DNA of 42,698 nt from Bacteroidota bacterium (lineage in GTDB: Bacteria; Bacteroidota; Bacteroidia; J057). Location of the stretch: positions 1-42,698 of the forward strand of contig JAAFHL010000003.1 in NCBI GenBank assembly GCA_013298365.1. Reading direction: 5' to 3'. Every line of letters begins with the position of its first letter. The first letter of the stretch is position 1. The notes under the pieces were generated by a model. It was not told the origin of the DNA and did no database searches. It saw only the letters and a list, made by a program, of their open reading frames with translations. Positions 2,934-42,698 of this stretch are shown here, piece by piece. A program made the position numbers and the translations under genes.

Positions 2934-3017
2934 CTCGCAGATTATCAGAGATTTAACCGCAGATTTGCGCAAAATAATCTCTGTTAATCTGCGTTTCCAT
3001 CTGCGCAAATCTGCGTG
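2934..3017. repeat. GCAGAT/ATCTGC-rich palindromic intergenic repeat, copy 1
   Basis: ctcgcagat...aaccgcagattt...aatctctgttaatctgcgttt...atctgcgcaaatctgcg. A second copy with the same block order lies at 28060-28143. Both sit immediately after a plus-strand stop codon. Confidence 0.7.
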
Positions 3018-4946: not shown

Positions 4947-6185
4947 ATGAAGATAATCATCATTGGTTCAGGACCTGCGGGCAGTGGCGCATCGCTATTT
5001 TTAGCAAAAAATAATATTCCACATACCATTATAGACAAAGCTGTTTTTCCTCGTGATAAAGTCTGTGGCGATGGGCTTGCGCCTAAAACCATGCACATTC
5101 TCAAAAAATGGAATCCTGAAATTATTGCCAAAATGGAAGCATTGCCCACACAATTTGCAGGCGGCTGGGGCGGTCTTGTCGTTGCGCCAAATGGCAAAAA
5201 GTTGGATATTCCTATTAAAAAACCAGAAATAGATGCACTTCCCCCTGGCTTTGTTTCTCGTAGAATAGATTTTGACCATTTTTTGACGCAACAATTTGAC
5301 CCGAAATGGACAACTTTTGTACAAGGGGCAGAAGCAAAAAATATAAAAAGACTTGATAAAGGCTTTGAAGTGAACATTTTACGTGAAGGGAAAACAGAAA
5401 CGCATTATGCTGACATTTTGATTGCCGCAGATGGCGACAAAAGCCTTGTGAAGAAAATGCTTACGCCTCGTCCGCAAAATGATGCGCATTTTGCAGCAGG
5501 AATCAGGGCATATTATAAGGGCGTAAAAGATTTGCACCCCCATAATCACATTGAATTTTACTTTTTGAATGAGGTAATTCCTGGCTATTTTTGGGTTTTT
5601 CCACTACCCGATGGGCGTGCAAATGTAGGGGTATGTATGATTTCCGAATATGTGAAAGCGCATAAAATCAACATAAGAGAAGCCATGTTAAAAGCAATTG
5701 CTGACCACCCTGAATTGAGCAAACGTTTTGAAGGAGCAGCGTTAGAAGGGAAAATTGTGGGCTGGGGATTGCCGCTTGGTTCAGAACCTGGTCCACTTTC
5801 TGCCGAAGGCTTGATGCTTACAGGAGATGCCGCTTCTTTGATAGACCCGATTTCTGGGGAAGGAATTGGCAATGCCTTATATTCAGGCTGGCTCGCCGCC
5901 GAAGCTGCGGTAAAAGCCATTCAAGAAAATAATGTTTCTGCCGATTTTTTCAAAGAAAATTATGATAAACGTCTTTTTCGTTGTATTGGAAATGATTTGC
6001 GCTTGAGTTATATTTTCCAAAGAATTTGCCGCTATCCTTGGCTCATCAATTTTATCGTCGGCAAAGCGCAAAGAAATAAGGTTTTTATGGAAACCATGAG
6101 TTGTATTTTTGACGACATGGCAATTCGAGCAAAATTGTATAGCCCTTGGTTTTATGTGCGGCTACTTGTCGGTTTTTTCAGATAG
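4947..6185 (+). CDS. FAD-dependent oxidoreductase, geranylgeranyl reductase family
   Basis: N-terminal IIIGSGPAGSGASLFLA dinucleotide-binding motif, then DKVCGDGL, LIAADGDKS and LTGDAASLIDPISGEGI. Confidence 0.7.
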   Translation: MKIIIIGSGPAGSGASLFLAKNNIPHTIIDKAVFPRDKVCGDGLAPKTMHILKKWNPEIIAKMEALPTQFAGGWGGLVVAPNGKKLDIPIKKPEIDALPPGFVSRRIDFDHFLTQQFDPKWTTFVQGAEAKNIKRLDKGFEVNILREGKTETHYADILIAADGDKSLVKKMLTPRPQNDAHFAAGIRAYYKGVKDLHPHNHIEFYFLNEVIPGYFWVFPLPDGRANVGVCMISEYVKAHKINIREAMLKAIADHPELSKRFEGAALEGKIVGWGLPLGSEPGPLSAEGLMLTGDAASLIDPISGEGIGNALYSGWLAAEAAVKAIQENNVSADFFKENYDKRLFRCIGNDLRLSYIFQRICRYPWLINFIVGKAQRNKVFMETMSCIFDDMAIRAKLYSPWFYVRLLVGFFR

Positions 6186-6270
6186 TTTTTATAAATAAAA
6201 CGCTTGAATATCAACATTTACGCATGTATTGTCGTTATGATAGCACAATAAAAAAGAAAATCCAGCATCT

Positions 6271-6954
6271 ATGTTAGCAGCAGAACTCATCTCAGATACC
6301 ATTCCTTCCGTCAAAAGCAGCGACAATGTCGCACGTGTATTAGATTGGATGGGAGAATTTAAAGTTACGAAGCTGCCGATTGTCGTAAAACAAAAATTTT
6401 GGGGCATTGTGCGAGAAAGTGAGTTACTTGATGCCTTAGACGATGATATGACGATTGGCGAATTGCTTCAAATGGAAGAAAATGAATTGTCGGCAGAAGG
6501 CAAAAAATACGGCATTTTGGGCAACAAACATTTTTACGATGTCTTGGCACTGATGAGCAAACTGCAATTAGAGATTTTGCCCGTTATAGATGAAGATAGA
6601 AACTATTTGGGTATGATTACCGCCGCAGATATTGCTTTTCACGCAGGTGAGTTGTTTGCTGTGCACGAAGAAGGCAGCATTGTTGTGGTGGAAACCCTTC
6701 AAAACAACTATATGCTTACCGAAGTTGCACGCATCGTGGAGGCAGGAAATGCAAAGGTACTAAGCCTCTACATACGCAATTTTCCCGATTCTGCAAAAGT
6801 ATGGATAACCGTCAAAATCAATGTATTAAATCCTGAAAAAGTAATTAGCCTATTTGAAAGGTACAATTATACCTTCATTTCTTCCTATCAACTCGAGGAG
6901 GAAAACAATGATTATAAGCGCAATTTATCTGCATTGATGCGTATGATAGATTAA
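6271..6954 (+). CDS. CBS domain-containing protein
   Basis: Two CBS-like units (VTKLPIVV..., LEILPVIDEDRNYLGMITAADI) followed by an ACT-like C-terminal region. Confidence 0.6.
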   Translation: MLAAELISDTIPSVKSSDNVARVLDWMGEFKVTKLPIVVKQKFWGIVRESELLDALDDDMTIGELLQMEENELSAEGKKYGILGNKHFYDVLALMSKLQLEILPVIDEDRNYLGMITAADIAFHAGELFAVHEEGSIVVVETLQNNYMLTEVARIVEAGNAKVLSLYIRNFPDSAKVWITVKINVLNPEKVISLFERYNYTFISSYQLEEENNDYKRNLSALMRMID

Positions 6955-6958
6955 TGAT

Positions 6959-7100
6959 ACTTTGTCAGGTTGAAAAATAATGAATTAAGTGTGTGATTGC
7001 GGGCAAGTGAGTTCAAAAATTTTGAAGGCTTTAGCCCCAAATTTTTGAACGAAGGAGCGAAGCAATCTCACGTAGGGGTATTAAAAGCGTTGATTTAGCG
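6959..7100. repeat. dispersed 'gcgaagcaatc / cattgcg' family repeat, copy 1
   Basis: ctttgtcaggttgaaaa...gtgtgtgattgcgggc...gaacgaaggagcgaagcaatctcacgtaggggtattaaaagcgttgatt. It shares blocks in both orientations with 35266-35398. Contains a 12-bp internal hairpin (7011-7050). Confidence 0.65.
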
Positions 7101-12421: not shown

Positions 12422-13510
12422 ATGACAAAACTTCGTATAGGCATTACCATAGGAGACGTGAATGGGGTAGGTCCCGAAATTCTGCTCAAAGCATTTCAAG
12501 ACAGTAGATTACGAAATATGTGTATTCCCATTTTATATGGCTCTGCTCGTGTGCTCAATATTTATAAAAAAATGCTTCAATTTGATAAATTTGGTTACAC
12601 CCTTGTGGCAAATCCTTCGCAAGCAAAGCCTGGTGTACTCAATGTTATCGATTGTATTCCCGATATAGAAAGAATAGATGTAGGAAATCCCTCACCTGCT
12701 TCTGGACATTGCGCCCTTGTGGCTTTGCAATGTGCAATAGATGATGCTTTGCACAAACAAATAGATGCCATTGTTACTTTGCCCATAGACAAGGCAACCG
12801 TAAAGCTCCACAAACATGATTTTACAGGGCATACCGAAATGCTTGCAGAAGCTTTTGGCGGAAAAGATAATCTGATGTTTATGGTTTCCGATGACATCAA
12901 AGTAGGGCTTGTAACCAATCATGTTGCCTTAGCTGATGTATCCAAAAATTTATCAATCAATCGTATTGTGGCAAAAGCAAAGATGATGATAGATACCTTG
13001 AAAAAAGACTTTGACAAGGAAAAACCCATTATCGCTGTTTTGGGACTCAATCCTCATTCGGGTGACGAAGGCAATATTGGCAGAGAAGAAATAGACATTA
13101 TCACGCCCGCCTTGGCGCAGTTGCACAAAGAAGGGTATATGGCGTATGGTCCTTATTCGCCTGATGGCTTTTTTAGTTCGTTGGGATTCAAGCACTTTGA
13201 TGCGGTTTTAGCCATGTATCACGACCAAGGACTTATTCCTTTCAAATTATTGGTAGGCACACAAGGCGTAAACTACACAGCAGGCATGGAAATCATTCGC
13301 ACTTCGCCCGACCATGGGGTAGCCTATGATATTGCAGGAAAAGGTGTGGCAGATGAAAGTAGTTTCCGTAATGCCCTATATCTTGCTATAGATATTTATG
13401 AACGCCGCAGCGAAAATATGGCACTCAAATCAAATGCTTTGATTATAGAGAAAAAACAAGCCTCACAAGAAGAAGCTCAGTCTGCAAAGGTGGCTTTTGA
13501 CGAAATTTAG
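12422..13510 (+). CDS. pdxA: 4-hydroxythreonine-4-phosphate dehydrogenase
   Basis: ITIGDVNGVGPEI, FTGHTEML, GLNPHSGDEG, HDQGLIPFK and RTSPDHG motifs are typical of PdxA. Confidence 0.85.
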   Translation: MTKLRIGITIGDVNGVGPEILLKAFQDSRLRNMCIPILYGSARVLNIYKKMLQFDKFGYTLVANPSQAKPGVLNVIDCIPDIERIDVGNPSPASGHCALVALQCAIDDALHKQIDAIVTLPIDKATVKLHKHDFTGHTEMLAEAFGGKDNLMFMVSDDIKVGLVTNHVALADVSKNLSINRIVAKAKMMIDTLKKDFDKEKPIIAVLGLNPHSGDEGNIGREEIDIITPALAQLHKEGYMAYGPYSPDGFFSSLGFKHFDAVLAMYHDQGLIPFKLLVGTQGVNYTAGMEIIRTSPDHGVAYDIAGKGVADESSFRNALYLAIDIYERRSENMALKSNALIIEKKQASQEEAQSAKVAFDEI

Positions 13511-13527
13511 TTTTGCTTAACAAAATA

Positions 13528-13566
13528 AAAACAAGCCTGATATATTTATGTCAGACTTGTTTTTTG
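13528..13566 (+). terminator. rho-independent terminator-like hairpin after pdxA
   Basis: aacaagcctga / tcagacttgtt stem (one mismatch) followed by a T-run (13560-13565). Confidence 0.5.
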
Positions 13567-13728
13567 TTATAAAAAATATTTTCTTTTTTAGGGAAATAGT
13601 TTTTTAGAAAAAAAATACATATTTTTGTGAAAAATTCTTGCCTTTTAATTAACATTTTACGTATATATGTCTATAATTATTCAGAAATTATCCGTTATTG
13701 GTTTTACCCCATATATTATCAAGTCAGA

Positions 13729-14700
13729 ATGAAATATTTAACTTCACTTATTACCGTTTATTTTCTTTGCTTGTCATGCCTTTATGCACAGACACTCCAT
13801 TATAAAATTCCTTTTCCTGCAAGTGCCTCAGTAACACGTAGTTATGCAGTGTGTTCATACCCTTCAGAATACCAAAAACAAATGGTAGAAAATGTGCGTG
13901 TAGGGGAAAACTTGGCTTATGATACGCTTTACACCAGTGAAATTATTTTGCCCAATTATGATACTTTGGCAGAAAACGTCATGGTTTATCCCGAATATAG
14001 CTATTGGGAATGGACAGGTGGCGATTCATTGACTTCTATCAAAGAATATAATATTGCCACAGCTGAAATGGTGGAATATTTTGCACCTATTTACACAATT
14101 CGCAAAGAGCGAAAATTATTGGAAGGGGAAGGACAACGTTGGGAAAGAGGATTAAAAAGCGCATTTTGTCTTTCTGCTAACCCAGACGACTGCTCAACGG
14201 TGCGTCTTAGTCCGATTGCACCTCAATATGCCTTGATAAAGTACCATGAAGTTGTGCGTCCTGCGCATAAAATTACGCACAAAGGTGGTACAGAATTGAT
14301 GGAAGAATTGACCGAAAATGCACCTTATATTCGCAAAATAACGGTTCCTGCACAGTACAAAATTGTGCGCAAATATGCCCCACAAAATGAGCCTTATATT
14401 TTGGTGAGCCAAGAAATTGTTCCTGCCAAAGAACAAGATGAGGAAGGTAATCGCATCGTATTCGTGAGAGCAGGAGGAATGTCGGACTGGCGAGAAATGC
14501 CTTGCTGTGAATGTCTGAGTGATATTCCGCCCATTATTCACATTCAACGTGCGCTCAAAGACAAAGGCTACTACAAGGGCGAATTAGATAACATTCTCAA
14601 TCCAGAAACAAAAGCCTCTTTAAAGCAATTTCAAAAAGACAATGATTTGCAAATTGGGAAATTAGATACAGAGACACTTACTGCATTGAATATACAATAA
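13729..14700 (+). CDS. secreted protein with P-A-x-Y repeats and C-terminal peptidoglycan-binding (PG_binding_1-like) domain
   Basis: ATG 13729 gives the signal peptide MKYLTSLITVYFLCLSCLYAQ. The C-terminus IQRALKDKGYYKGELDNILNPETKASLKQFQKDNDLQIGKLDTETLTAL has the PG_binding_1 pattern. Its C-terminal module is paralogous to 36313..37014. Confidence 0.6.
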   Translation: MKYLTSLITVYFLCLSCLYAQTLHYKIPFPASASVTRSYAVCSYPSEYQKQMVENVRVGENLAYDTLYTSEIILPNYDTLAENVMVYPEYSYWEWTGGDSLTSIKEYNIATAEMVEYFAPIYTIRKERKLLEGEGQRWERGLKSAFCLSANPDDCSTVRLSPIAPQYALIKYHEVVRPAHKITHKGGTELMEELTENAPYIRKITVPAQYKIVRKYAPQNEPYILVSQEIVPAKEQDEEGNRIVFVRAGGMSDWREMPCCECLSDIPPIIHIQRALKDKGYYKGELDNILNPETKASLKQFQKDNDLQIGKLDTETLTALNIQ

Positions 14701-14703
14701 GGT

Positions 14704-15180
14704 TTAATGAATTGTTTTTTTTCTGTGAGGTGGCACAACTACCTCACTTTTTATTTTGGTAGGCTCTGACGGCGGGTAATAATACACCGAAATTTCCACC
14801 CTTCGATTGGAATGTTTTCCCTCATCGTCTGCATTTCTTGTAGCAGGTTGGTCTGCCCCAAAAAAGTCGGCACGTATCCACTCACTATTTAAGCCCAATT
14901 GCAATAAATAATTTTTTACCGCCCCAACTCTGTGTTCTGAAAGTTTTTGATTGGCAGTAATATTGCCTGTATTGTCTGTATGTCCCGTCAGAATCATGGT
15001 GTAGGAAGGACTTTCTTTAACTAAATTGGCTATCTCAAATAAAGTCATCAAACTTTGCTGCGAAAGCGCATAGCTTCCACTTTCAAAATAGACTTGTTTT
15101 TTGAGTGGCGTATTTTGTGAAAAAACAGAAAATGATGTGAGAAGACAAGAAAATAAGAAAATATATTTCATTTGTAGCAT
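14704..15180 (-). CDS. OmpA-family (OmpA C-terminal peptidoglycan-binding domain) secreted protein
   Basis: Signal peptide, then YFESGSYAL...LTGHTDNTG...LSEHRVGAVKNYL...NRRVEISV. Confidence 0.8.
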   Translation of the reverse strand: MLQMKYIFLFSCLLTSFSVFSQNTPLKKQVYFESGSYALSQQSLMTLFEIANLVKESPSYTMILTGHTDNTGNITANQKLSEHRVGAVKNYLLQLGLNSEWIRADFFGADQPATRNADDEGKHSNRRVEISVYYYPPSEPTKIKSEVVVPPHRKKTIH

Positions 15181-15183
15181 TTT

Positions 15184-16704
15184 TTATACAATTCCCGAAT
15201 TTCGGGCAATATAGCCATCTATTGCCTTTTTGAGCTGAATTTCTACCTGTGCCATGGGCAACATAAGGCTGGACGAGGAGAAAATGGCAGAACTTATGTT
15301 CAAAAAATCGCTGACATCGGCAAGATGCGTATCTATCACCCAAGTTTCCACATTGTCTTTGGAGATTGGCACAAGCTCAGAAAGCAAGCGACAATGGGTA
15401 GGGTAGGCATCTGCTAATTTTTGCAACTCTGCTTGAATGTCTTTTTTAAAATATTTTTTGGAGAAAAAGCCTGATAGAAAACTACTTTTGAGCTGGTCGG
15501 GAGAATAAAGAACGTTTATAAATATCGTAAAATTGGGGAGATAGGTGTCTTTTTGTTCCACATTCCAAAATTCACCAATGTACCAATTAAGTAACTCTAT
15601 CGTGGTCTGATTCCATTCTTCGCCAGGAATATTGTGCTGGAGAATCACATTTTTTTGGGTAGAAAAAAATGGATTGGTGATCACGTCCATCGCAGAAACA
15701 TTTGCTGCCGATTTCCCCTGCCAATTCAAGGTTTCAAACGTTTCTACAATCCGCAATTTTAGCAGTTGTTTCAAATCATTAATTGTGCCTTTTATGGGCC
15801 AATTTTTGATTTCATTGGGGCGTACAAAAACTCGCTTGCCAATAGATTCCCAACTAAAACGGGTAATAAGGCTGTCATGCCTATCTTCTTTTAGCCCACG
15901 AATCAGAAAAACTTGGGGCTTGCGCACAGGTTGTACGATTGCTTGCGAATAAGAAAGTTTAAACTCATCATTTTGCTCTACTCTATTACAAAGCAAATGT
16001 GAAAAAGGACCTACTTTTTGCGCAGGTGGCGGCGGCGGCGTAAAAGGACGCTCGATTGCCCACAAAGAACCATGTGAAGGATACATGTCCCAGGGCATTG
16101 CTTGTGGCAGTTCCGCATCATTAAGCCCTTCCCAATATACTTTGCGAAAATTATTTTCACCACTCAAAGTGAGTGCCTCATCTCTCGCATCTTGATAAGA
16201 TTGCGTGATAACTTGATGATTGCCAACACCTTTATAAAAGCGAGTGGAAAACTGCGTAGCTATAGTGTCTTTGATTTTGGAAGAGGTAGCGATTACATTT
16301 TTAACCCCTTTATTCAATAATAAGTTGGCTTGTTCTTGGGTAGAACAAGCATTCAAAAAGACCAATTCTAAGCCTGCTTGTCGCCCCAAAAAAGAAGAAA
16401 AACCAGCGATATTTGCCAATTCATTGCCTGTACCTGCTGCATTTTCTAACATCAATACGTAACTATCTGCATGACCTGCATAATGAAATATAGCAATCCG
16501 ATTTTGGTAACGAGAATCTGTGAAAACATCTATAATATCACTCAAAGCGACATTTATACGTTCCACAATTTCTATCAAGCCTGCTTTTTCTATACCTTGC
16601 AAAGCCTGACGTATGCCTCTTTGTTCTTGAGACAGCCCCCGCAGATAATTGGCTTTATTCTGCTGGTCGTTGGCATAAGCGAGAAAAATTATTGGCTTCG
16701 TCAT
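15184..16704 (-). CDS. CHAT (caspase-fold) peptidase domain fused to a Walker-A-less STAND-like C-terminal module
   Basis: The His context is IAIFHYAGHA (His78 from ATG 16704) and the Cys context is LVFLNACST (Cys120). A PPPPP linker follows. The C-terminal module starts LCNRVEQNDEF...KPQVFLIRGLKEDRHDSLITRF, with Gly at the P-loop position but no GK[ST]. No signal peptide or TM helices. The track start TTG 16719 is less likely than ATG 16704. Confidence 0.6.
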   Translation of the reverse strand: MTKPIIFLAYANDQQNKANYLRGLSQEQRGIRQALQGIEKAGLIEIVERINVALSDIIDVFTDSRYQNRIAIFHYAGHADSYVLMLENAAGTGNELANIAGFSSFLGRQAGLELVFLNACSTQEQANLLLNKGVKNVIATSSKIKDTIATQFSTRFYKGVGNHQVITQSYQDARDEALTLSGENNFRKVYWEGLNDAELPQAMPWDMYPSHGSLWAIERPFTPPPPPAQKVGPFSHLLCNRVEQNDEFKLSYSQAIVQPVRKPQVFLIRGLKEDRHDSLITRFSWESIGKRVFVRPNEIKNWPIKGTINDLKQLLKLRIVETFETLNWQGKSAANVSAMDVITNPFFSTQKNVILQHNIPGEEWNQTTIELLNWYIGEFWNVEQKDTYLPNFTIFINVLYSPDQLKSSFLSGFFSKKYFKKDIQAELQKLADAYPTHCRLLSELVPISKDNVETWVIDTHLADVSDFLNISSAIFSSSSLMLPMAQVEIQLKKAIDGYIARNSGIV

Positions 16705-17085
16705 AGAGCGTAATGGCAAATTACGAAACTACAGGTTTAGGAATATGAAAATCAAGTTTTTAGCAGTAAAACATGAAAATTACTAATCTTAAACAATAGA
16801 AAATTTCACGAATTGCCGCTAAGATACGGCTTGATATTGTATTGTGCAATTTTTTTTGAAAAAAAATATATTACAAAGCATAAAAATGACAAAAAGATAT
16901 TTATTTTCAAAGTTAAATATACTATTTAGGTTCTTGCAGATGAAAGTAAATAAAGCCTTGATTTGTGTTCATCTACAATAAATTAGGCTAATTCTACAAA
17001 AAAATGCCTTTGAAATAACAATATGTACGTTTGATGGGTTTAGGCTTTTAATGTCATTTATATCATTTTCAGATTTATATTAAAT

Positions 17086-20338: not shown

Positions 20339-23038
20339 TTATTTTTTATCAGCTTTGAGAAAAGGCTCAACTTGATTGATACCACCTTTGTCAGCCGCTT
20401 TTCCTTCGCAACGAATCTCGCCTTTAAACTCAACATACATGGTTTGAGAATAAGGTGCAGTAGCTGGATTTGTTTTGAATTTCATACCTAATAAAATAGC
20501 TGGCAATTTTGCTACAACTTCTTCAGGTGTGGTTTTCAACACTTTGTAAGAAGTAACATTTCCATTTCTATCTACATTTACTTCTGCCAACACATGTGTT
20601 ACGCCACAAGCACCTGCTTTTTTCAAGTTTTCACGAAGATAGTTTTTCATTCCTACTTCCCCATCAATAAATTCAAGTGAGCCATTAGAAGCCACAGGAA
20701 TATTTTTGTAGGTATCGGCATGAATGGCATCAGGATTTTTGTCGCCTGTACTAACATAGTTGCCATTTGCTTGTGGTGCAGCAGGAACTACGATTTCAGG
20801 TTGTTTTACAGTAATTGGCGCAGGTGCAGGCGTAGGTGTTACCGCTCTGTTAGCCTCTTTTTTAGGCATTACAGGTGCAGGAACTACAACAGGTGCATTT
20901 GCTTGCGCTTGACGATTTGCTTTAGAATCAAGGCTTTTGCCATTTTGCAATTCTTTCATAATAATCTCTCTGCCTTCGGGTGTTTTTGCCAAAGCTTCGG
21001 TATTATTATAGTCCATATTCATCCATTCTTGGTCAGCTGCTGCATTTCTTGAATCCACTCTATTGTGTGGTTGTCCATTTTGCATTCCCGCAGGTGCAGG
21101 TACATTTGGCACATTTCTCCAGTCTTGTGAACCACTCATTGCAGGCGCATTTCCTGGAGCAATTGCTAAAGGTCTATTTGCTTTTTGCGCTTCTAATTCT
21201 TGCTGCATACGATACAGTTTGCTGTTCAAGTCATCAATTCTTTGCATCAACTTATTGACAGTACTTGTATCTGTATCTTCCTGCTTAGCAACAGGTTTAT
21301 TATTGTTCTTATTTTCTTTTGCAGGTGCAGTTGTAGGTGCAGGCATGTCCATGGTTACCGTTCCACCATTTTTGCGGATTTCTGCTTCTTGTTGAAGTTT
21401 TGCTCTTTTTTCTTCTATGCCACGCAATTCTTCTTGTTGTTTTTGCAATTCACCTGTATAACGCTCCATATCTTGCTGCATACGCTTGATGTCGTCCATT
21501 TTCTTTTGGAGTTCACGCTCTTGCTCTTTTTTCTTTTCCTCAGCAGCACGTTTTTCTTCGTCAATACGTCTCAATTCTGCTTCGTCTTTTTTTACAACGG
21601 CTTCAACTTTTGTACGTTGCAAATCTTCTGCTAAACGAGCGATTTCTGTTTCTTTTCGTTTTGCTTCATCATCAGCTTTACGTTTTGCATCTTGTGCTTC
21701 TCTCAAAGAACGTTCAGCCGCAGCAATTTTATCTTGCATAGCTCTTTCTTCTGCTCTCATTTTTTCGTCAGCATCTTTGATACGCTTATCACTTTCATAA
21801 CGGCGTTTTTCTTCTGGTGACATTTTTGCAAGTTTATTTGCTTCTGCGGCAGCATCATCAGCCGCTTTTTTAGCTGCTAATTCTTCTGGGGTTGGTGGCT
21901 TAGGTGCTTCTTCAACCTTATCATCTTTCCCTTTTTTCACCACAACTGCTTTACAATCCATTACAGGCTTACCGTTTTTATCTACTAATGGTTTGCCATC
22001 TCTACCTAATACAGGCTTACAATCCATTTTTTTCTCAGTACTTTGGTCCATTCCCCAATCAAGTTCTCCGTCTGCCCCTTCTTTTTTGTCGTCTTTAGCC
22101 CCTTCTTTTTTATCCTCTTTTGCAGCTACCTCAGTAGGTGCAACTTTAAGTTTTTTCGCTTCTTCTTCTCTTGCACGTCTATCAAGTTCTGCACGCAAAG
22201 CGGCAATTTCTTCTTGTGTTTCACGTGCTTTGTCTGCTTCTAAAGTAGAAGGACCGCCTCTTGGTGCAGGTGGTGCAACCGCAGGAATAGGTTGTGGTAT
22301 AGGCGGAAGTTGTGTACCTGCTGGTGTAGTTACGGCAGCAGCACCTACAGGTTTTGCATTCATTTGTACCAAAGAACCTGCTGGAACTACGGGCTGTGAA
22401 GGCATTGTAGGTTGTGCAGATGCGATAGGTTGTGATGCAGGTGGTGTAACTACTGGTGGTGTTATAGGCTGCGTTGCAACAGGTTGTGGGTTCACAACAG
22501 GTTGATTGACAGCTACTCCGCCTACTGGTGCAGGTGGTGTAACAACAATAGGTTGATTCGGATTAGAAGAAGCTGCACCTGTACTTGAAGCATTTGTGAT
22601 GGCTACTCCGTTTTTGTCTAACATTGCATTATTGAAGGTTTCAATTTTTGCATAGACATTATTTCTGCCTTCGCATGGCATGTCTGGTTTCAAGTCAATG
22701 AATACAGATTTAGGTCCTTTGAACTCGGTTGCGTCCCAACGAATGCTTTTTACGATGTCAATAATAGACTCTTTGTAGCACTCATTTGTGCCTGTAAGTG
22801 CTTTTGCACTTAGTACATAACCTGTTGGGTCTATCCTTACTTCAAGATAGACACGATTACTGCCGCAGCAAGTACTTTGCGCTTGAAGGCGGTTGTAAAT
22901 ATAGTCGCGAACGGTCGTTTTTCCATCGCTAAAAATGTAAGTTTTGGTGTCAGCAGTAAGTTTTGTTACATCTACAGGCTGTGCCTTTAGTAACAATACA
23001 CTTAGCATACACACATAAAACAGCAATAAACGTTTCAT
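20339..23038 (-). CDS. large secreted protein: two related globular end domains flanking Pro-rich and highly charged coiled-coil regions
   Basis: Signal peptide MKRLLLFYVCMLSVLLLKAQ. Both end domains finish with a ...K(x4)CEG motif (DLKPDMPCEG and EFKGEIRCEG). The centre has P/V/Q-rich tracts and ~300 aa of E/K/R/A-rich heptad-like sequence. Confidence 0.7.
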   Translation of the reverse strand: MKRLLLFYVCMLSVLLLKAQPVDVTKLTADTKTYIFSDGKTTVRDYIYNRLQAQSTCCGSNRVYLEVRIDPTGYVLSAKALTGTNECYKESIIDIVKSIRWDATEFKGPKSVFIDLKPDMPCEGRNNVYAKIETFNNAMLDKNGVAITNASSTGAASSNPNQPIVVTPPAPVGGVAVNQPVVNPQPVATQPITPPVVTPPASQPIASAQPTMPSQPVVPAGSLVQMNAKPVGAAAVTTPAGTQLPPIPQPIPAVAPPAPRGGPSTLEADKARETQEEIAALRAELDRRAREEEAKKLKVAPTEVAAKEDKKEGAKDDKKEGADGELDWGMDQSTEKKMDCKPVLGRDGKPLVDKNGKPVMDCKAVVVKKGKDDKVEEAPKPPTPEELAAKKAADDAAAEANKLAKMSPEEKRRYESDKRIKDADEKMRAEERAMQDKIAAAERSLREAQDAKRKADDEAKRKETEIARLAEDLQRTKVEAVVKKDEAELRRIDEEKRAAEEKKKEQERELQKKMDDIKRMQQDMERYTGELQKQQEELRGIEEKRAKLQQEAEIRKNGGTVTMDMPAPTTAPAKENKNNNKPVAKQEDTDTSTVNKLMQRIDDLNSKLYRMQQELEAQKANRPLAIAPGNAPAMSGSQDWRNVPNVPAPAGMQNGQPHNRVDSRNAAADQEWMNMDYNNTEALAKTPEGREIIMKELQNGKSLDSKANRQAQANAPVVVPAPVMPKKEANRAVTPTPAPAPITVKQPEIVVPAAPQANGNYVSTGDKNPDAIHADTYKNIPVASNGSLEFIDGEVGMKNYLRENLKKAGACGVTHVLAEVNVDRNGNVTSYKVLKTTPEEVVAKLPAILLGMKFKTNPATAPYSQTMYVEFKGEIRCEGKAADKGGINQVEPFLKADKK

Positions 23039-39973: not shown

Positions 39974-42698
39974 TTATCTTTTCATCTTTAATTGTTCTAT
40001 GTCATTTTTAAGTTCATTAATTAGTTTTTGTTGTTCTTTAATAGCTTCAATTAAGTAGGGAGTTATGGCAGAATAGTTGACAAACATATCGCCTGTTCCT
40101 CCTTCTTCAACAGCCAATGGAAATTGTTTTTTTAATTCTTGAGCTAAAACACCACTATTCCATACAGGTTGTTGTCCTTTCTCTATTTCGGACTGAGCCA
40201 ATTTAAACTGATATTCATATCCACCTATTTTCATAATCCTATCTAAAGATTTAGTAATGGGGGTAATATTGTTTTTCTTGCGTTCATCACTTACTGTTAC
40301 CAATGAGCCTGCTGAGTTTATATAGGATTTAAGCGCAGTATTATCATAAGGATTGGTATTTGCACCGTCAAAAAAGTCTTCGTCCATAAAATAAAGTAGT
40401 GCTGCAGGTTGTCCTTGATTACCATCGCCAGGAGACCAAATCGCACAAGTATTCCCATCTGCAAAAAAACCGCCCGACTCAAGAGTTGTATTTCCATTAA
40501 CACCTAAAGAAGACACCATTGCATATCGACCACCAAAACCCATGACTTGCGCCCCATTACCATGCTGAAAAGTATTTGTGCCTCCTGTTACCATGCCTGG
40601 TTCACTTGTTATATTTCCTAATGATAAAGTAACGTTTGTAGTACTTGTGCTATATAATCCAAGTGTACTTCCTAAATCTACATCTGTAAAATATGCATCA
40701 TCTCCGATAACAAGATTCTGAGAGCCTGCTGCACCATAGTCTTGAGCTGTGATTCTACCACTTACAAAGAGATTTTGTTGTGAAGTAGCAGAACCTGGAC
40801 CTACTCTCACTGTTCCAGAGCTTGCCCCTAATACAAGGTCATTATTTGCACCTGTAGAAGTTCCATCTGTATAAAGCCCATTATACCCCCAAGCCGAACC
40901 CAAACGTAGGCGACCACGCCCTCCTACTGTCATGGTTTCATTTCCTTGAACGTGAATGTTATTTTCTGTCCAAAGGTCTGTATTATATACATTTGTACCT
41001 GCGCCATTAATCGCAAGTCTTACGCCAGGTGCTGTTGTACCAATCCCTACATTGCCCGCTTGTGTAATTGCCATTCGGTTAGCAGAAGATGTATAAAAAT
41101 CTAAACCAAATTGATTTCCACCTGCATTGCGCTTAGAAGCAATTCCCTCTCCCGAAGCATTACCAAAAGCTAAAGCATTAGAAGAAATAAGACCAGTGTT
41201 ACCATTATTATTGTCAATAGTAGCACCAGAGCCTACGGTAAGCCCGCCGTCCATACGTCCATTAGACGAAATCCAGAAATTAGCAGTACTTTGTTGAGCA
41301 GCAAATTGATTTTTGATGTAACCATTATTATTTTGGTTTAAAGTAACAACTCCTGTACTTGAAATCGTTGCATCTCCACTTACGGTGGTAAAAGTAGGGA
41401 CATTTGAAGCATTACCTAACAAAACTTGTCCCGCAGTAGGGGCAGATGTAAGGTTCACATTTCCTGTACCATTACCATAGAGTACGCCATTGCTTGTGAG
41501 GCTTGTAAGTCCTGTTCCCCCATTAGCTACGGGAACTGTACCAAGTGAAATGACGGGCGTTGTTGTACCTGTTGCCACATTGATAGGAGAAGTACCTGTT
41601 ACAGAAGTAACAGTACCTGTGGTCGGACTCACCCAACTCAATACGCCAGCACCATTATTAGAAAGTGTTTGTCCTGCTGTTCCTTGTGCAATGGGTAAAG
41701 TAAGCGCATAAGAAGTTGTGGTAGTACCTGAATTAAGCGTTACCGTATTGCCATTCGCTGAATTTGCCATAATTAAAGCCCCGGTATTACTTGTGCCGAC
41801 TCCTAATTGCAAACCTGCCGCAGAAAGGCGAGCTTTTTCTGTATTTGCAATCACAAACCCCATTGTATTTGCACCAGGACGATATATCCCACTATTTGCA
41901 TCATTTGTAAAACGAATAGCAGGCGTACCTGTTCCGCCGTCATTTGCAATAAAACCGCTATTTGTACGAACCGCTCCTGATACATCTAATTTCACGCCTG
42001 GCGTAGCCGTTCCTATACCCACATTTCCTGTTCCTGTAAAAGCAACATCAAATCCTGCTTGTGCAATGGTGGTAGCTTGAATCAATGTACCTCCTAATTG
42101 TGTATTGCTACTCGTCATTGTCAAACCATTATTTGCAGTATAAACGGTAGCCGCAGGCAAAGTAACCGAACCGCCATTTACCAAAGAAATGACATTTCCT
42201 GCAATCGAAAGGGCTTGATTGTCTGTATTATCCAAATAGGTTGCAAGATTTACACCAGCACTTGTAACCCCATTTACCGTTGTGGTTAATGTATTCGCAT
42301 TAATCGTATTAGAAACCGTATTTACTGCATCTGCCGTAGCAACAACCCCGTTTACGGTACTTGTTAAGGTATTTGTTCCGTTATTTACTAAAACATTTGT
42401 GGTCGCAGGGGCGGCAGGTAAGGTAACATTTCCCCCATTTGTTAAAGAAATAACATTACCTGCGATGCTAAGTTGTTGTGCGTCAAGGGACGTTAAAGGA
42501 ACGCCTGTACCACCACCCGAAATATTCAAGTTACCACCCGAAACCGATAAATCTTGTATTTCATTGGTAATACTGCCATCAACCTCTGTAAAAGTATTAG
42601 CAACCACATAAGGCGAAGCGGTTGTACCTGTTCCTGTTACCGAAATATTTGTACCTGCGGTTACTTTTGTTTCCGAACCATCAGCACTTGGGACAGTA
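39974..42698 (-). CDS. tail-fibre-like repetitive surface protein with C-terminal peptidase S74 / intramolecular chaperone auto-processing domain (5' end outside the window)
   Basis: The frame stays open to the window edge upstream of the track start at 42607. The sequence is Gly/Thr/Asn/Val-rich with an internal duplication (QLSIAGNVISLTNGGNVTLPAA and ALSIAGNVISLVNGGSVTLPAA). The C-terminal 105 aa start VSDERKKNNI...GGYEYQF...GVLAQEL, the signature of the endosialidase/tail-spike chaperone domain. Confidence 0.7.
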   Translation of the reverse strand, partial: TVPSADGSETKVTAGTNISVTGTGTTASPYVVANTFTEVDGSITNEIQDLSVSGGNLNISGGGTGVPLTSLDAQQLSIAGNVISLTNGGNVTLPAAPATTNVLVNNGTNTLTSTVNGVVATADAVNTVSNTINANTLTTTVNGVTSAGVNLATYLDNTDNQALSIAGNVISLVNGGSVTLPAATVYTANNGLTMTSSNTQLGGTLIQATTIAQAGFDVAFTGTGNVGIGTATPGVKLDVSGAVRTNSGFIANDGGTGTPAIRFTNDANSGIYRPGANTMGFVIANTEKARLSAAGLQLGVGTSNTGALIMANSANGNTVTLNSGTTTTSYALTLPIAQGTAGQTLSNNGAGVLSWVSPTTGTVTSVTGTSPINVATGTTTPVISLGTVPVANGGTGLTSLTSNGVLYGNGTGNVNLTSAPTAGQVLLGNASNVPTFTTVSGDATISSTGVVTLNQNNNGYIKNQFAAQQSTANFWISSNGRMDGGLTVGSGATIDNNNGNTGLISSNALAFGNASGEGIASKRNAGGNQFGLDFYTSSANRMAITQAGNVGIGTTAPGVRLAINGAGTNVYNTDLWTENNIHVQGNETMTVGGRGRLRLGSAWGYNGLYTDGTSTGANNDLVLGASSGTVRVGPGSATSQQNLFVSGRITAQDYGAAGSQNLVIGDDAYFTDVDLGSTLGLYSTSTTNVTLSLGNITSEPGMVTGGTNTFQHGNGAQVMGFGGRYAMVSSLGVNGNTTLESGGFFADGNTCAIWSPGDGNQGQPAALLYFMDEDFFDGANTNPYDNTALKSYINSAGSLVTVSDERKKNNITPITKSLDRIMKIGGYEYQFKLAQSEIEKGQQPVWNSGVLAQELKKQFPLAVEEGGTGDMFVNYSAITPYLIEAIKEQQKLINELKNDIEQLKMKR

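Follow-up and report, generated by a model that had tools for sequence, protein, structure and literature searches.

We identified a two-gene locus on the minus strand of a stretch of Bacteroidota DNA (contig JAAFHL010000003.1; all 42,698 nucleotides were analysed and are called the window below). Its first gene encodes a CHAT-iSTAND protein, in which a caspase-like CHAT peptidase domain is joined to an inactive STAND (iSTAND) module, and its second encodes a small OmpA-type protein; these two open reading frames (ORFs), in the same orientation, make up the whole locus. The explanation that we favour, and to which we give somewhat better than even credence, is that the locus is the third component of a ternary-type system of Bacteroidota, made up of an AAA+ ATPase, a giant scaffold protein and the iSTAND protein, together with an OmpA protein private to one subclade. 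The AAA+ and giant partners would have been lost from the locus or unlinked from it, and would probably act in trans. The locus is a reduced, OmpA-augmented variant of a predicted conflict system that has already been described, and not a new category.

All that the original prediction, made from the sequence of the window alone, had stated at the level of the sequence was confirmed. It placed the pair near predicted conflict systems, and the kinship of the pair with the iSTAND ternary family bears this out (PMC7159879). It had also proposed that the module was undescribed and that no known system includes a peptidoglycan-binding partner. That part fails: the C-terminal module is Pfam family PF19995, and Kaur et al. 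describe both caspase-like and OmpA-type domains in iSTAND systems (PMC7159879). In the literature, we did not find a description of a separate OmpA protein with a signal peptide, or of the loss of the AAA+ and giant genes from such a locus.

The CHAT-iSTAND protein

The CHAT-iSTAND gene (15184–16704, minus strand, stop codon included) encodes a protein of 506 amino acids (aa) and was delimited from the ORF list, Pfam and 20 full-length homologues. Its first 221 residues (16042–16704, minus strand) form a CHAT/caspase-like peptidase domain. Pfam CHAT (PF12770) matches aa 21–191 with 36.7 bits and E = 4e-9 (gathering cutoff 24). A profile of 21 family members matches chain 8tl0_A, a SAVED-CHAT protein, with E = 9e-19; this is the only solved structure matched. 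We built an AlphaFold model of the protein from the family alignment (mean predicted local distance difference test score, pLDDT, 81.6), and the top Foldseek match of its N-terminal domain is the SAVED-CHAT filament (E = 3e-8, probability 1.0). The first reading of this domain as CHAT/caspase-like is upheld, and the model predicts a caspase-hemoglobinase fold (clan CD).

His78 (codon 16471–16473, minus strand; context IAIFHYAGHA) and Cys120 (codon 16345–16347, minus strand; context LVFLNACST) had been proposed as the catalytic pair. Both residues are the same in every one of the 21 family members and pair with residues 355 and 402 of the 8tl0 chain, at a constant offset of 20 from the dyad of SAVED-CHAT (H375/C422), with which they align. 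Mutation of the H375/C422 dyad kills SAVED-CHAT (bioRxiv 10.1101/2023.06.23.546230). The dyad of the caspase-fold domain is intact in the window protein, and proteolysis is predicted. Among the close relatives of this domain, CHAT occurs in fusions with TIR, with protein kinases and with active STAND modules (nSTAND1, AAA_16, NB-ARC).

A hydropathy scan of the 506-aa protein found no transmembrane (TM) segment, as had been claimed, and the protein is predicted to be cytoplasmic. A proline linker, PPPPP, lies at aa 223–227 (16024–16038, minus strand), where a check of the sequence confirmed it, and the model is disordered around it, with pLDDT below 50 at residues 222–228. The suspected tie to defence did not extend to a defence model of the core protein, which has no match in PADLOC-DB 2.0 at E ≤ 1; NCBIfam holds no specific model for it either.

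The iSTAND module occupies aa 232–506 (15187–16011, minus strand), as delimited by PF19995 and Foldseek. Pfam iSTAND, named for 'inactive STAND', matches aa 236–383 with 51.5 bits and E = 2e-13 (gathering cutoff 24), and the same call is precomputed for the 20 homologues. The C-terminal half of the model finds AAA+/STAND NTPases with E values from 2e-5 to 1e-3, among them ORC/Cdc6 (7mca_E, 6.5e-5), Rad24-RFC, the plant NLR protein RPP1 (7dfv_B, 1.4e-4), Clp and torsin.

The place of the Walker-A motif is taken by KPQVFLIRGLKEDRHDSLITRF at aa 262–283 (15856–15921, minus strand), in which a strand and a Gly are followed by an invariant His in place of the P-loop Lys. The order G270-LKEDR-H276-DS lacks the Lys-Ser/Thr of an active site; G270, H276, L279 and R282 are invariant across the family, and the model shows a strand (264–271), a loop and a helix (277–288). 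In the strand that we infer to hold the Walker-B position, the last residues are QHN, none of them acidic. The earlier description of a STAND-like module without the P-loop Lys is supported by the Pfam call, by His276 and by the fold matches. The model points to a P-loop NTPase (AAA+/STAND) fold with eroded Walker A and Walker B motifs, so NTP-driven switching would not be expected.

The OmpA protein

The second gene (14704–15180, minus strand) encodes a protein of 158 aa that is predicted to be secreted and to bind peptidoglycan, and that is an accessory specific to its clade. Pfam OmpA (PF00691) matches it with 67.6 bits and E = 1e-18 (cutoff 27.2). Its sequence begins with a signal peptide (aa 1–21, 15118–15180, minus strand) with predicted cleavage between VFS and Q, and in the alignment of all six orthologues a small residue closes the hydrophobic N-terminus and Q comes next. 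The cleavage rule applied here is the one familiar from Bacteroidota signal peptides. We considered and rejected a lipoprotein: Cys at position 12 of the signal peptide is not conserved.

The OmpA-C domain spans aa 31–126 (14803–15090, minus strand), as defined by Pfam. In the window protein its motif reads TGHTDNTG...NQKLSEHRVGAVKNYL, and the peptidoglycan-binding motif TGHTDNxG...NQKLSExRVxAVKNYL is kept in six of six orthologues. The Asp and Arg residues of this motif are those with which OmpA-C domains bind peptidoglycan. The end of the OmpA domain and a conserved proline-rich tail, YYYPPSEPxKIKSEVVVPxHR in the alignment of the six orthologues, are encoded at 14707–14802 (minus strand); the tail is a possible docking motif. 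In PADLOC the protein matches ZorB models (E = 1e-10 to 3e-2) through the generic OmpA-C/MotB domain only.

The OmpA protein of the window has only five orthologues among 5.8 billion proteins (61–91% identity), after which the next matches are generic OmpA domains at no more than 44% identity. Every one of these orthologues adjoins a CHAT-iSTAND gene, the ternary AAA+ gene, or both. We also considered the protein as a deletion remnant of the C-terminus of the giant and rejected this idea, since the giants end in WG repeats; blastp, phmmer and HMM (hidden Markov model) searches found no OmpA similarity in the giants.

Relatives of the locus

Relatives were sampled by a search of protein databases, look-ups of contigs and two scans of collections. 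The protein database contains 20 full-length homologues of about 505 aa each, all from uncultured Bacteroidota. Clade A shares 41–56% identity with the window protein. At about 16 distinct loci of this clade, the CHAT-iSTAND gene is followed by a gene for an AAA+ protein of about 305 aa, whose best matches are Pfam AAA_5 and the midasin AAA modules in the PDB, and then by a gene for a giant protein of 1830–2007 aa. The giant comprises a conserved N-terminal helical domain, three TM segments, two PKD domains, a conserved middle of 440 aa, and TPR, WD40 and WG repeats. With its N-terminus assumed to be cytoplasmic, the PKD and WD40/WG parts are extracytoplasmic, and the ancestral system would therefore span the envelope.

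A vWA domain was not detected in the giant. Pfam was run on segments and, member by member, at E up to 10, where VWA_CoxE gave E = 0.28 in one of seven members; a PDB profile search gave no match, and hhalign against a genuine vWA protein gave a probability of 0.1; the fold search used a shorter homologue of the giant with a low-confidence AlphaFold model (pLDDT 46). The middle region bears the vWA-like motifs EYLxLIDRxSxKD and HRLLIxGDG, a resemblance only. On a strict definition the relatives are therefore only putative MoxR-vWA systems. The conserved region between TM2 and TM3 also occurs in much shorter proteins of 639–723 aa (P0074–P0077) that lack Pfam annotation, one of them from Pyrinomonadaceae; this region looks like a conserved domain not yet characterised, and may be a divergent vWA.

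Clade B consists of paralogous CHAT-iSTAND proteins (30–34% identity) that often occur in the same metagenome-assembled genomes (MAGs) as clade A. At its loci the AAA+ gene is missing and a giant-like gene is present, or the neighbours are unrelated. In L028, L030, L032 and L095 the CHAT-iSTAND gene is followed by one for a giant-like WD40/WG protein of about 1455 aa, without AAA+, and clade B loci share MAGs with the complete clade A operons L015, L016 and L023. This suggests that clade B loci use a shared AAA+ protein in trans.

The genes for the four proteins nearest to that of the window (96, 89, 88 and 85% identity) each have an orthologous OmpA gene directly downstream. In L172 and L177 (samples DRR666269 and ERR13258383) the gene order is CHAT-iSTAND, OmpA, AAA+, and the AAA+ proteins are 66–81% identical to those of clade A. 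No AAA+ or giant gene is adjacent in the window, L174, L176 or L008. Downstream of OmpA there is a convergent PG_binding_1 gene in the window and L174, a DUF6702 gene in L008 and an unrelated P-loop ORF in L176. The spacing between CHAT-iSTAND and OmpA ranges from 3 to 128 nucleotides across the subclade; in L008 a REP-like repeat occupies the gap of 114 nucleotides that separates the two genes. Conserved adjacency to an OmpA gene, for which the homologues were to be surveyed, is found in the subclade of the window but not in clade A at large, where the AAA+ gene comes next instead.

In a neighbor-joining tree the OmpA clade is nested in clade A, with L172 basal, and its sister group contains two ternary loci together with L011 and L173, two solo loci that have neither partner. 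These gene orders are most economically explained if a ternary operon first gained the OmpA gene and subsequently lost, or became unlinked from, its AAA+ and giant genes; in the solo lineage a second, independent unlinking would have taken place. Searches with tblastn found no pseudogene remnant of either the AAA+ gene or the giant gene in the window, L174, L008, L011 or L173.

Location varies among the close relatives. In L008, whose protein is 88% identical, a Septu system (PtuA, E = 6e-57; PtuB, E = 7e-35), two PD-(D/E)xK proteins and an AbiLi/AriA-like ATPase are encoded at distances of 2–5 kb from the pair; the region (12717–16972 and 5873–7009) also includes a leucine-rich repeat protein. 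Judged by its genes, this setting is defence-island-like, unlike that of the window. The surroundings of the window are housekeeping, and the flanks are conserved in several MAGs: in L001, L015 and L016 UbiD is encoded upstream and MarR genes are found downstream.

In one branch of clade A the ternary loci are followed by two or three tandem genes for proteins of about 150 aa (L001 18574–20606, L015 16901–18898, L016 18549–20541, L017 19093–20735, and also L019, L022 and L023), with a MarR-family call in L001. The tandem genes could form a conserved regulatory addition to the system. In a Calditrichaceae MAG (L046, 3897–7002), CHAT and iSTAND each have an ORF of their own, side by side, and genes for an AAA+ protein and a giant-like protein come next; by its gene order this is a candidate split third component in another phylum.

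Selection on the two genes

Ratios of nonsynonymous to synonymous substitution rates (dN/dS) were calculated by the Nei-Gojobori method for pairs within the OmpA clade. For CHAT-iSTAND they are 0.024–0.072, at dS values that start at 0.58 and reach saturation, and are just as low in one domain as in the other; for OmpA they are 0.12–0.19. Ternary-linked control pairs give 0.014 (dS 0.61) and 0.033. The window protein keeps all 65 residues that are invariant in the family. Any relaxation of constraint is mild at most, and the locus is not a relic. Such strong purifying selection indicates that both genes are still functional.

Comparison with known systems

Kaur, Burroughs, Iyer and Aravind (eLife 2020) defined the iSTAND ternary systems by three components (PMC7159879): a MoxR AAA+ protein, a vWA protein whose C-terminal effector varies, and an iSTAND protein. 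The iSTAND protein has at its N-terminus a caspase-like or trypsin-like peptidase, a TIR domain or an effector-associated domain (EAD), and the systems are enriched in Bacteroidetes (PMC7159879). TM segments occur in about 28% of them. Peptidoglycan-associating effector domains, among them PEGA, OmpA, PASTA and Sel1, set them apart from other ternary systems and as a rule come behind a TM segment (PMC7159879), which implies action near the membrane and the cell wall. In a follow-up paper the third component is predicted to detect the invader and to switch on effectors through proteolytic or nucleotide signals (PMC8195603).

The window protein has the make-up of this third component. CHAT lies N-terminal to iSTAND in one polypeptide, the iSTAND module belongs to the same Pfam family, the N-terminal domain is caspase-like and the host belongs to Bacteroidota; a peptidoglycan-binding OmpA domain and the theme of membrane proximity are common to both. 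In most relatives of the window gene a MoxR-like (AAA_5/midasin-type) AAA+ gene comes next, followed by one for a very large, variable protein with TM segments and superstructure-forming repeats. However, these defining AAA+ and large-protein genes are absent from the window locus, and with two of the three defining genes missing it is not a ternary system as defined. The OmpA domain of the described systems is preceded by a TM segment and sits on the vWA component, whereas here it is a stand-alone protein of 158 aa with a signal peptide, and the vWA domain itself was not detected in the giants of the relatives. The iSTANDs of MoxR-vWA systems have been described as rapidly evolving (PMC12839542), whereas the family of the window is slow-evolving and therefore unlike the usual diversifying sensor of invaders.

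The closest solved CHAT domain is that of SAVED-CHAT from hybrid type III-B CRISPR/CBASS loci (PDB 8tl0), whose catalytic His and Cys align with those of the window protein. Both are two-domain proteins in which a sensor and a CHAT domain are joined by a flexible linker. In SAVED-CHAT the sensor is N-terminal and is a SAVED domain that binds cA3, whereas here it would be the inactive STAND module at the C-terminus. SAVED-CHAT has CRISPR, cyclase and PCaspase partners, none of which is present at the window locus; Pfam scans found no SAVED or TPR domain in the 506-aa protein and no cas or cyclase genes in the window.

Fusions of CHAT to active STAND modules (NACHT, NB-ARC or AVAST-type) share the logic of a STAND-fold assembly coupled to a caspase-fold protease. 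CHAT-iSTAND differs from these active sensors in its eroded Walker motifs and in having no C-terminal arrays of sensor repeats. An OmpA/MotB-type peptidoglycan-binding domain also occurs in a defence system in Zorya ZorB, related to MotB stators. In contrast to ZorB, the OmpA protein described here is small, soluble and periplasmic, and it has no TM stator helix, plug or ZorA-like partner.

Proposed mechanism

On the most economical history, the ancestral operon had the order CHAT-iSTAND, AAA+ and a giant of about 2000 aa with three TM segments. The OmpA gene was then inserted between CHAT-iSTAND and AAA+, and in the lineage of the window the AAA+ and giant genes were lost from the locus or moved. 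The iSTAND module, presumably unable to hydrolyse NTP, may serve as an assembly platform that binds a ligand or a partner. Its oligomerisation could gather CHAT domains and thereby turn on the His78/Cys120 protease, by analogy with the cA3-driven filaments of SAVED-CHAT. The protease would cut cytoplasmic targets; in the full system these may be effectors that the giant recruits, or those parts of the giant itself that lie in the cytoplasm. For its part, OmpA would be exported by the Sec pathway, bind peptidoglycan through its Asp/Arg motif and anchor or modulate the periplasmic face.

Nothing in the pair crosses the membrane, and for this reason we favour an AAA+/giant pair encoded elsewhere in the genome and working in trans. 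The presence of clade B loci without AAA+ in MAGs that have a clade A operon makes such use in trans plausible. The original prediction had offered the OmpA protein as a possible substrate of the protease. This is unlikely, because after export OmpA is in a different compartment from the cytoplasmic protease.

Several observations weigh against the ternary-derived explanation. A cytoplasmic protease cannot reach exported OmpA, so coupling between the two products would be indirect at best. The AAA+ and giant genes are absent across the 42.7-kb window, the stretch searched for partners: Pfam scans of its 26 ORFs found no AAA+/MoxR or vWA gene, and custom HMMs and tblastn with the AAA+ and giant proteins of the relatives found nothing. 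L011 and L173 keep CHAT-iSTAND alone, with neither partner, and CHAT-iSTAND may therefore work without partners. The vWA status of the giant in the relatives was not confirmed by Pfam, PDB profile, hhalign or fold searches. The family evolves slowly and often sits at syntenic chromosomal positions, and the gene neighbourhood of the window itself is housekeeping. The defence role of iSTAND ternary systems is, moreover, a prediction from comparative genomics.

Alternative explanations

The pair could instead be an autonomous two-gene module, derived from the ternary ancestor by reduction, in which CHAT-iSTAND senses a signal and cleaves cytoplasmic targets as an effector of abortive infection or programmed death, and OmpA independently alters or reinforces the wall. 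We regard this as unlikely. It would account for the four members of the subclade that have no adjacent AAA+ or giant gene and still show strong purifying selection, for the CHAT-iSTAND genes that stand alone in L011 and L173, and for a pair that has been kept together while its flanks differ. The L008 copy, in a defence-island-like region, and SAVED-CHAT, in which self-assembly alone activates a sensor-CHAT protein, point the same way. However, about 16 relatives and two members of the subclade retain the AAA+ gene, the protease and OmpA are in separate compartments with no membrane-spanning part between them, and the negative result for partners covers the window only.

In its boldest form, to which we assign an equally low chance, CHAT-iSTAND and OmpA would be a self-sufficient, minimised two-component module for envelope-coupled death or defence, reduced from a ternary system, in which iSTAND alone would sense a cytoplasmic cue and trigger the caspase-like protease, with the private periplasmic protein as the sole further dedicated part. 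If this were true, the 'threshold-setting' MoxR/vWA core would be dispensable in such systems.

A further explanation, also improbable in our judgement, is that the family, whether ternary or reduced, is a conserved machine of these Bacteroidia for envelope or cell-surface maintenance or for development and is not directed at invaders. CHAT would process the giant or envelope factors, and OmpA would tether the machine to the wall. The very low dN/dS of CHAT-iSTAND and of AAA+ would fit such a role, as would the conserved flanks in several MAGs (L001, L015, L016) and the housekeeping context of the window. PADLOC has no specific model for CHAT-iSTAND or for the giant of L006 and gives only weak generic ATPase matches for the AAA+ protein of L006, and the giants bear scaffold-type repeats and not nucleases or other toxins. 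Set against this, close relatives of the CHAT domain are fused to the TIR, protein kinase and active STAND modules of conflict systems, and Kaur et al. assign iSTAND systems to the conflict network (PMC7159879). The L008 copy lies amid Septu and other defence genes, and the flanking genes vary among close relatives, suggesting mobility.

That the adjacency of OmpA is incidental, and that the protein is an ordinary envelope protein with no functional link to CHAT-iSTAND, we consider very unlikely. In its favour, protease and OmpA end up in different compartments, simple inheritance could account for the adjacency among relatives of 85–96% identity, and the spacing varies from 3 to 128 nucleotides, with a REP-like palindrome in the gap of L008. 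However, the orthologues of OmpA (61–91% identity) occur solely beside this system, with the next best matches at 44% or less, and the gene was inserted inside an operon, between CHAT-iSTAND and AAA+. The pair has been kept while four different genes occur downstream, and OmpA-type domains have been reported independently as effectors of iSTAND systems (PMC7159879).

A decaying remnant of a ternary operon left without function by a deletion, which the absence of the AAA+ and giant genes from the locus might suggest, is effectively refuted by the dN/dS of 0.02–0.07 with saturated dS, alike in both domains, and is further opposed by full-length ORFs in five diverged relatives and by the retention of all 65 family-invariant residues.

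The subclade is a naturally minimised iSTAND system that consists of a sensor-protease of 506 aa and a periplasmic protein of 158 aa, both strongly constrained. The natural series of full operon, OmpA-augmented operon, pair only and protease alone is a ready-made genetic dissection of the parts that the protease needs, and the pair is a small construct for studying the control of a caspase-like protease by an inactive STAND module. The OmpA/peptidoglycan theme of these systems can come from a separate secreted subunit.

Layout and surroundings of the locus

The start codon of the CHAT-iSTAND ORF is ATG. A TTG at 16719, five codons upstream, is also in frame, but all orthologues begin with MTKP at the ATG, and the TTG is therefore not the start. 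The stop codon (15184–15186) is followed by a gap of 3 nucleotides and then by the ATG of OmpA at 15180. This gap and a probable operon with a secreted OmpA-C gene had been proposed at the outset; the coordinates, the PF00691 match and the signal peptide agree with the proposal, and the two genes are, from this arrangement, almost certainly co-transcribed. The OmpA stop codon (14704–14706) lies 3 nucleotides from the stop of the convergent gene at 13627–14700 (plus strand), which encodes a protein of 357 aa with a PG_binding_1 domain at its C-terminus. The pair thus ends, as first described, 3 bp from the stop of a convergent peptidoglycan-binding gene (14704 and 14700). A terminator-like hairpin with a run of T lies at 14725–14747 (plus strand), directly 3' of the stop of the PG_binding_1 gene; it therefore overlaps the last part of the OmpA gene, which is encoded on the opposite strand.

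Upstream of the pair, an AT-rich intergenic region of 381 bp (16705–17085) separates CHAT-iSTAND from a divergent gene for a TonB-dependent receptor. Its GC content is 25.5%, compared with 38.2% for the window, in keeping with the AT-rich upstream region noted at first. It contains TAACTTTG at 16908–16915 and a sigma-70-like match at 16892–16865, and is probably the promoter region. A simple scan of the locus for sigma-70 promoters and terminators gave a result not above shuffled expectation.

The neighbours of the pair in the window are chromosomal genes of Bacteroidota, including those for a C25 PorU-like peptidase, pdxA, dus, TonB-dependent receptors, proteins with type IX secretion system tails and a Nuo/Mrp-type subunit. 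The setting is syntenic with L174. The contig of the nearest MAG (L027, JAYUZN01) carries only 137 codons of the CHAT-iSTAND gene, for an N-terminal part that is 90% identical.

Elsewhere in the window, an ORF of 899 aa at 20339–23038 (minus strand) has no Pfam match and has a syntenic counterpart of 898 aa in L174; composition is strongly skewed in this stretch, with an AT skew of -0.41 and a GC skew of -0.17 at 21001–22000. A protein of 877 aa with a C-terminal Peptidase_S74 domain is encoded at 39974–42607 (minus strand), in a chromosomal Bacteroidota context; Endosialidase and tail fibres use Peptidase_S74 as an intramolecular chaperone. Between an msrB-like gene and an epimerase gene, at 2936–3015, there is a REP-like palindromic repeat built of the units CGCAGATT and AATCTGCG, arranged as a pair of copies on one strand and then a pair on the opposite strand. 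The same repeat is found in L008 (11520–11606 and 5779–5843), L174 (7072–7135) and L177 (36–43).

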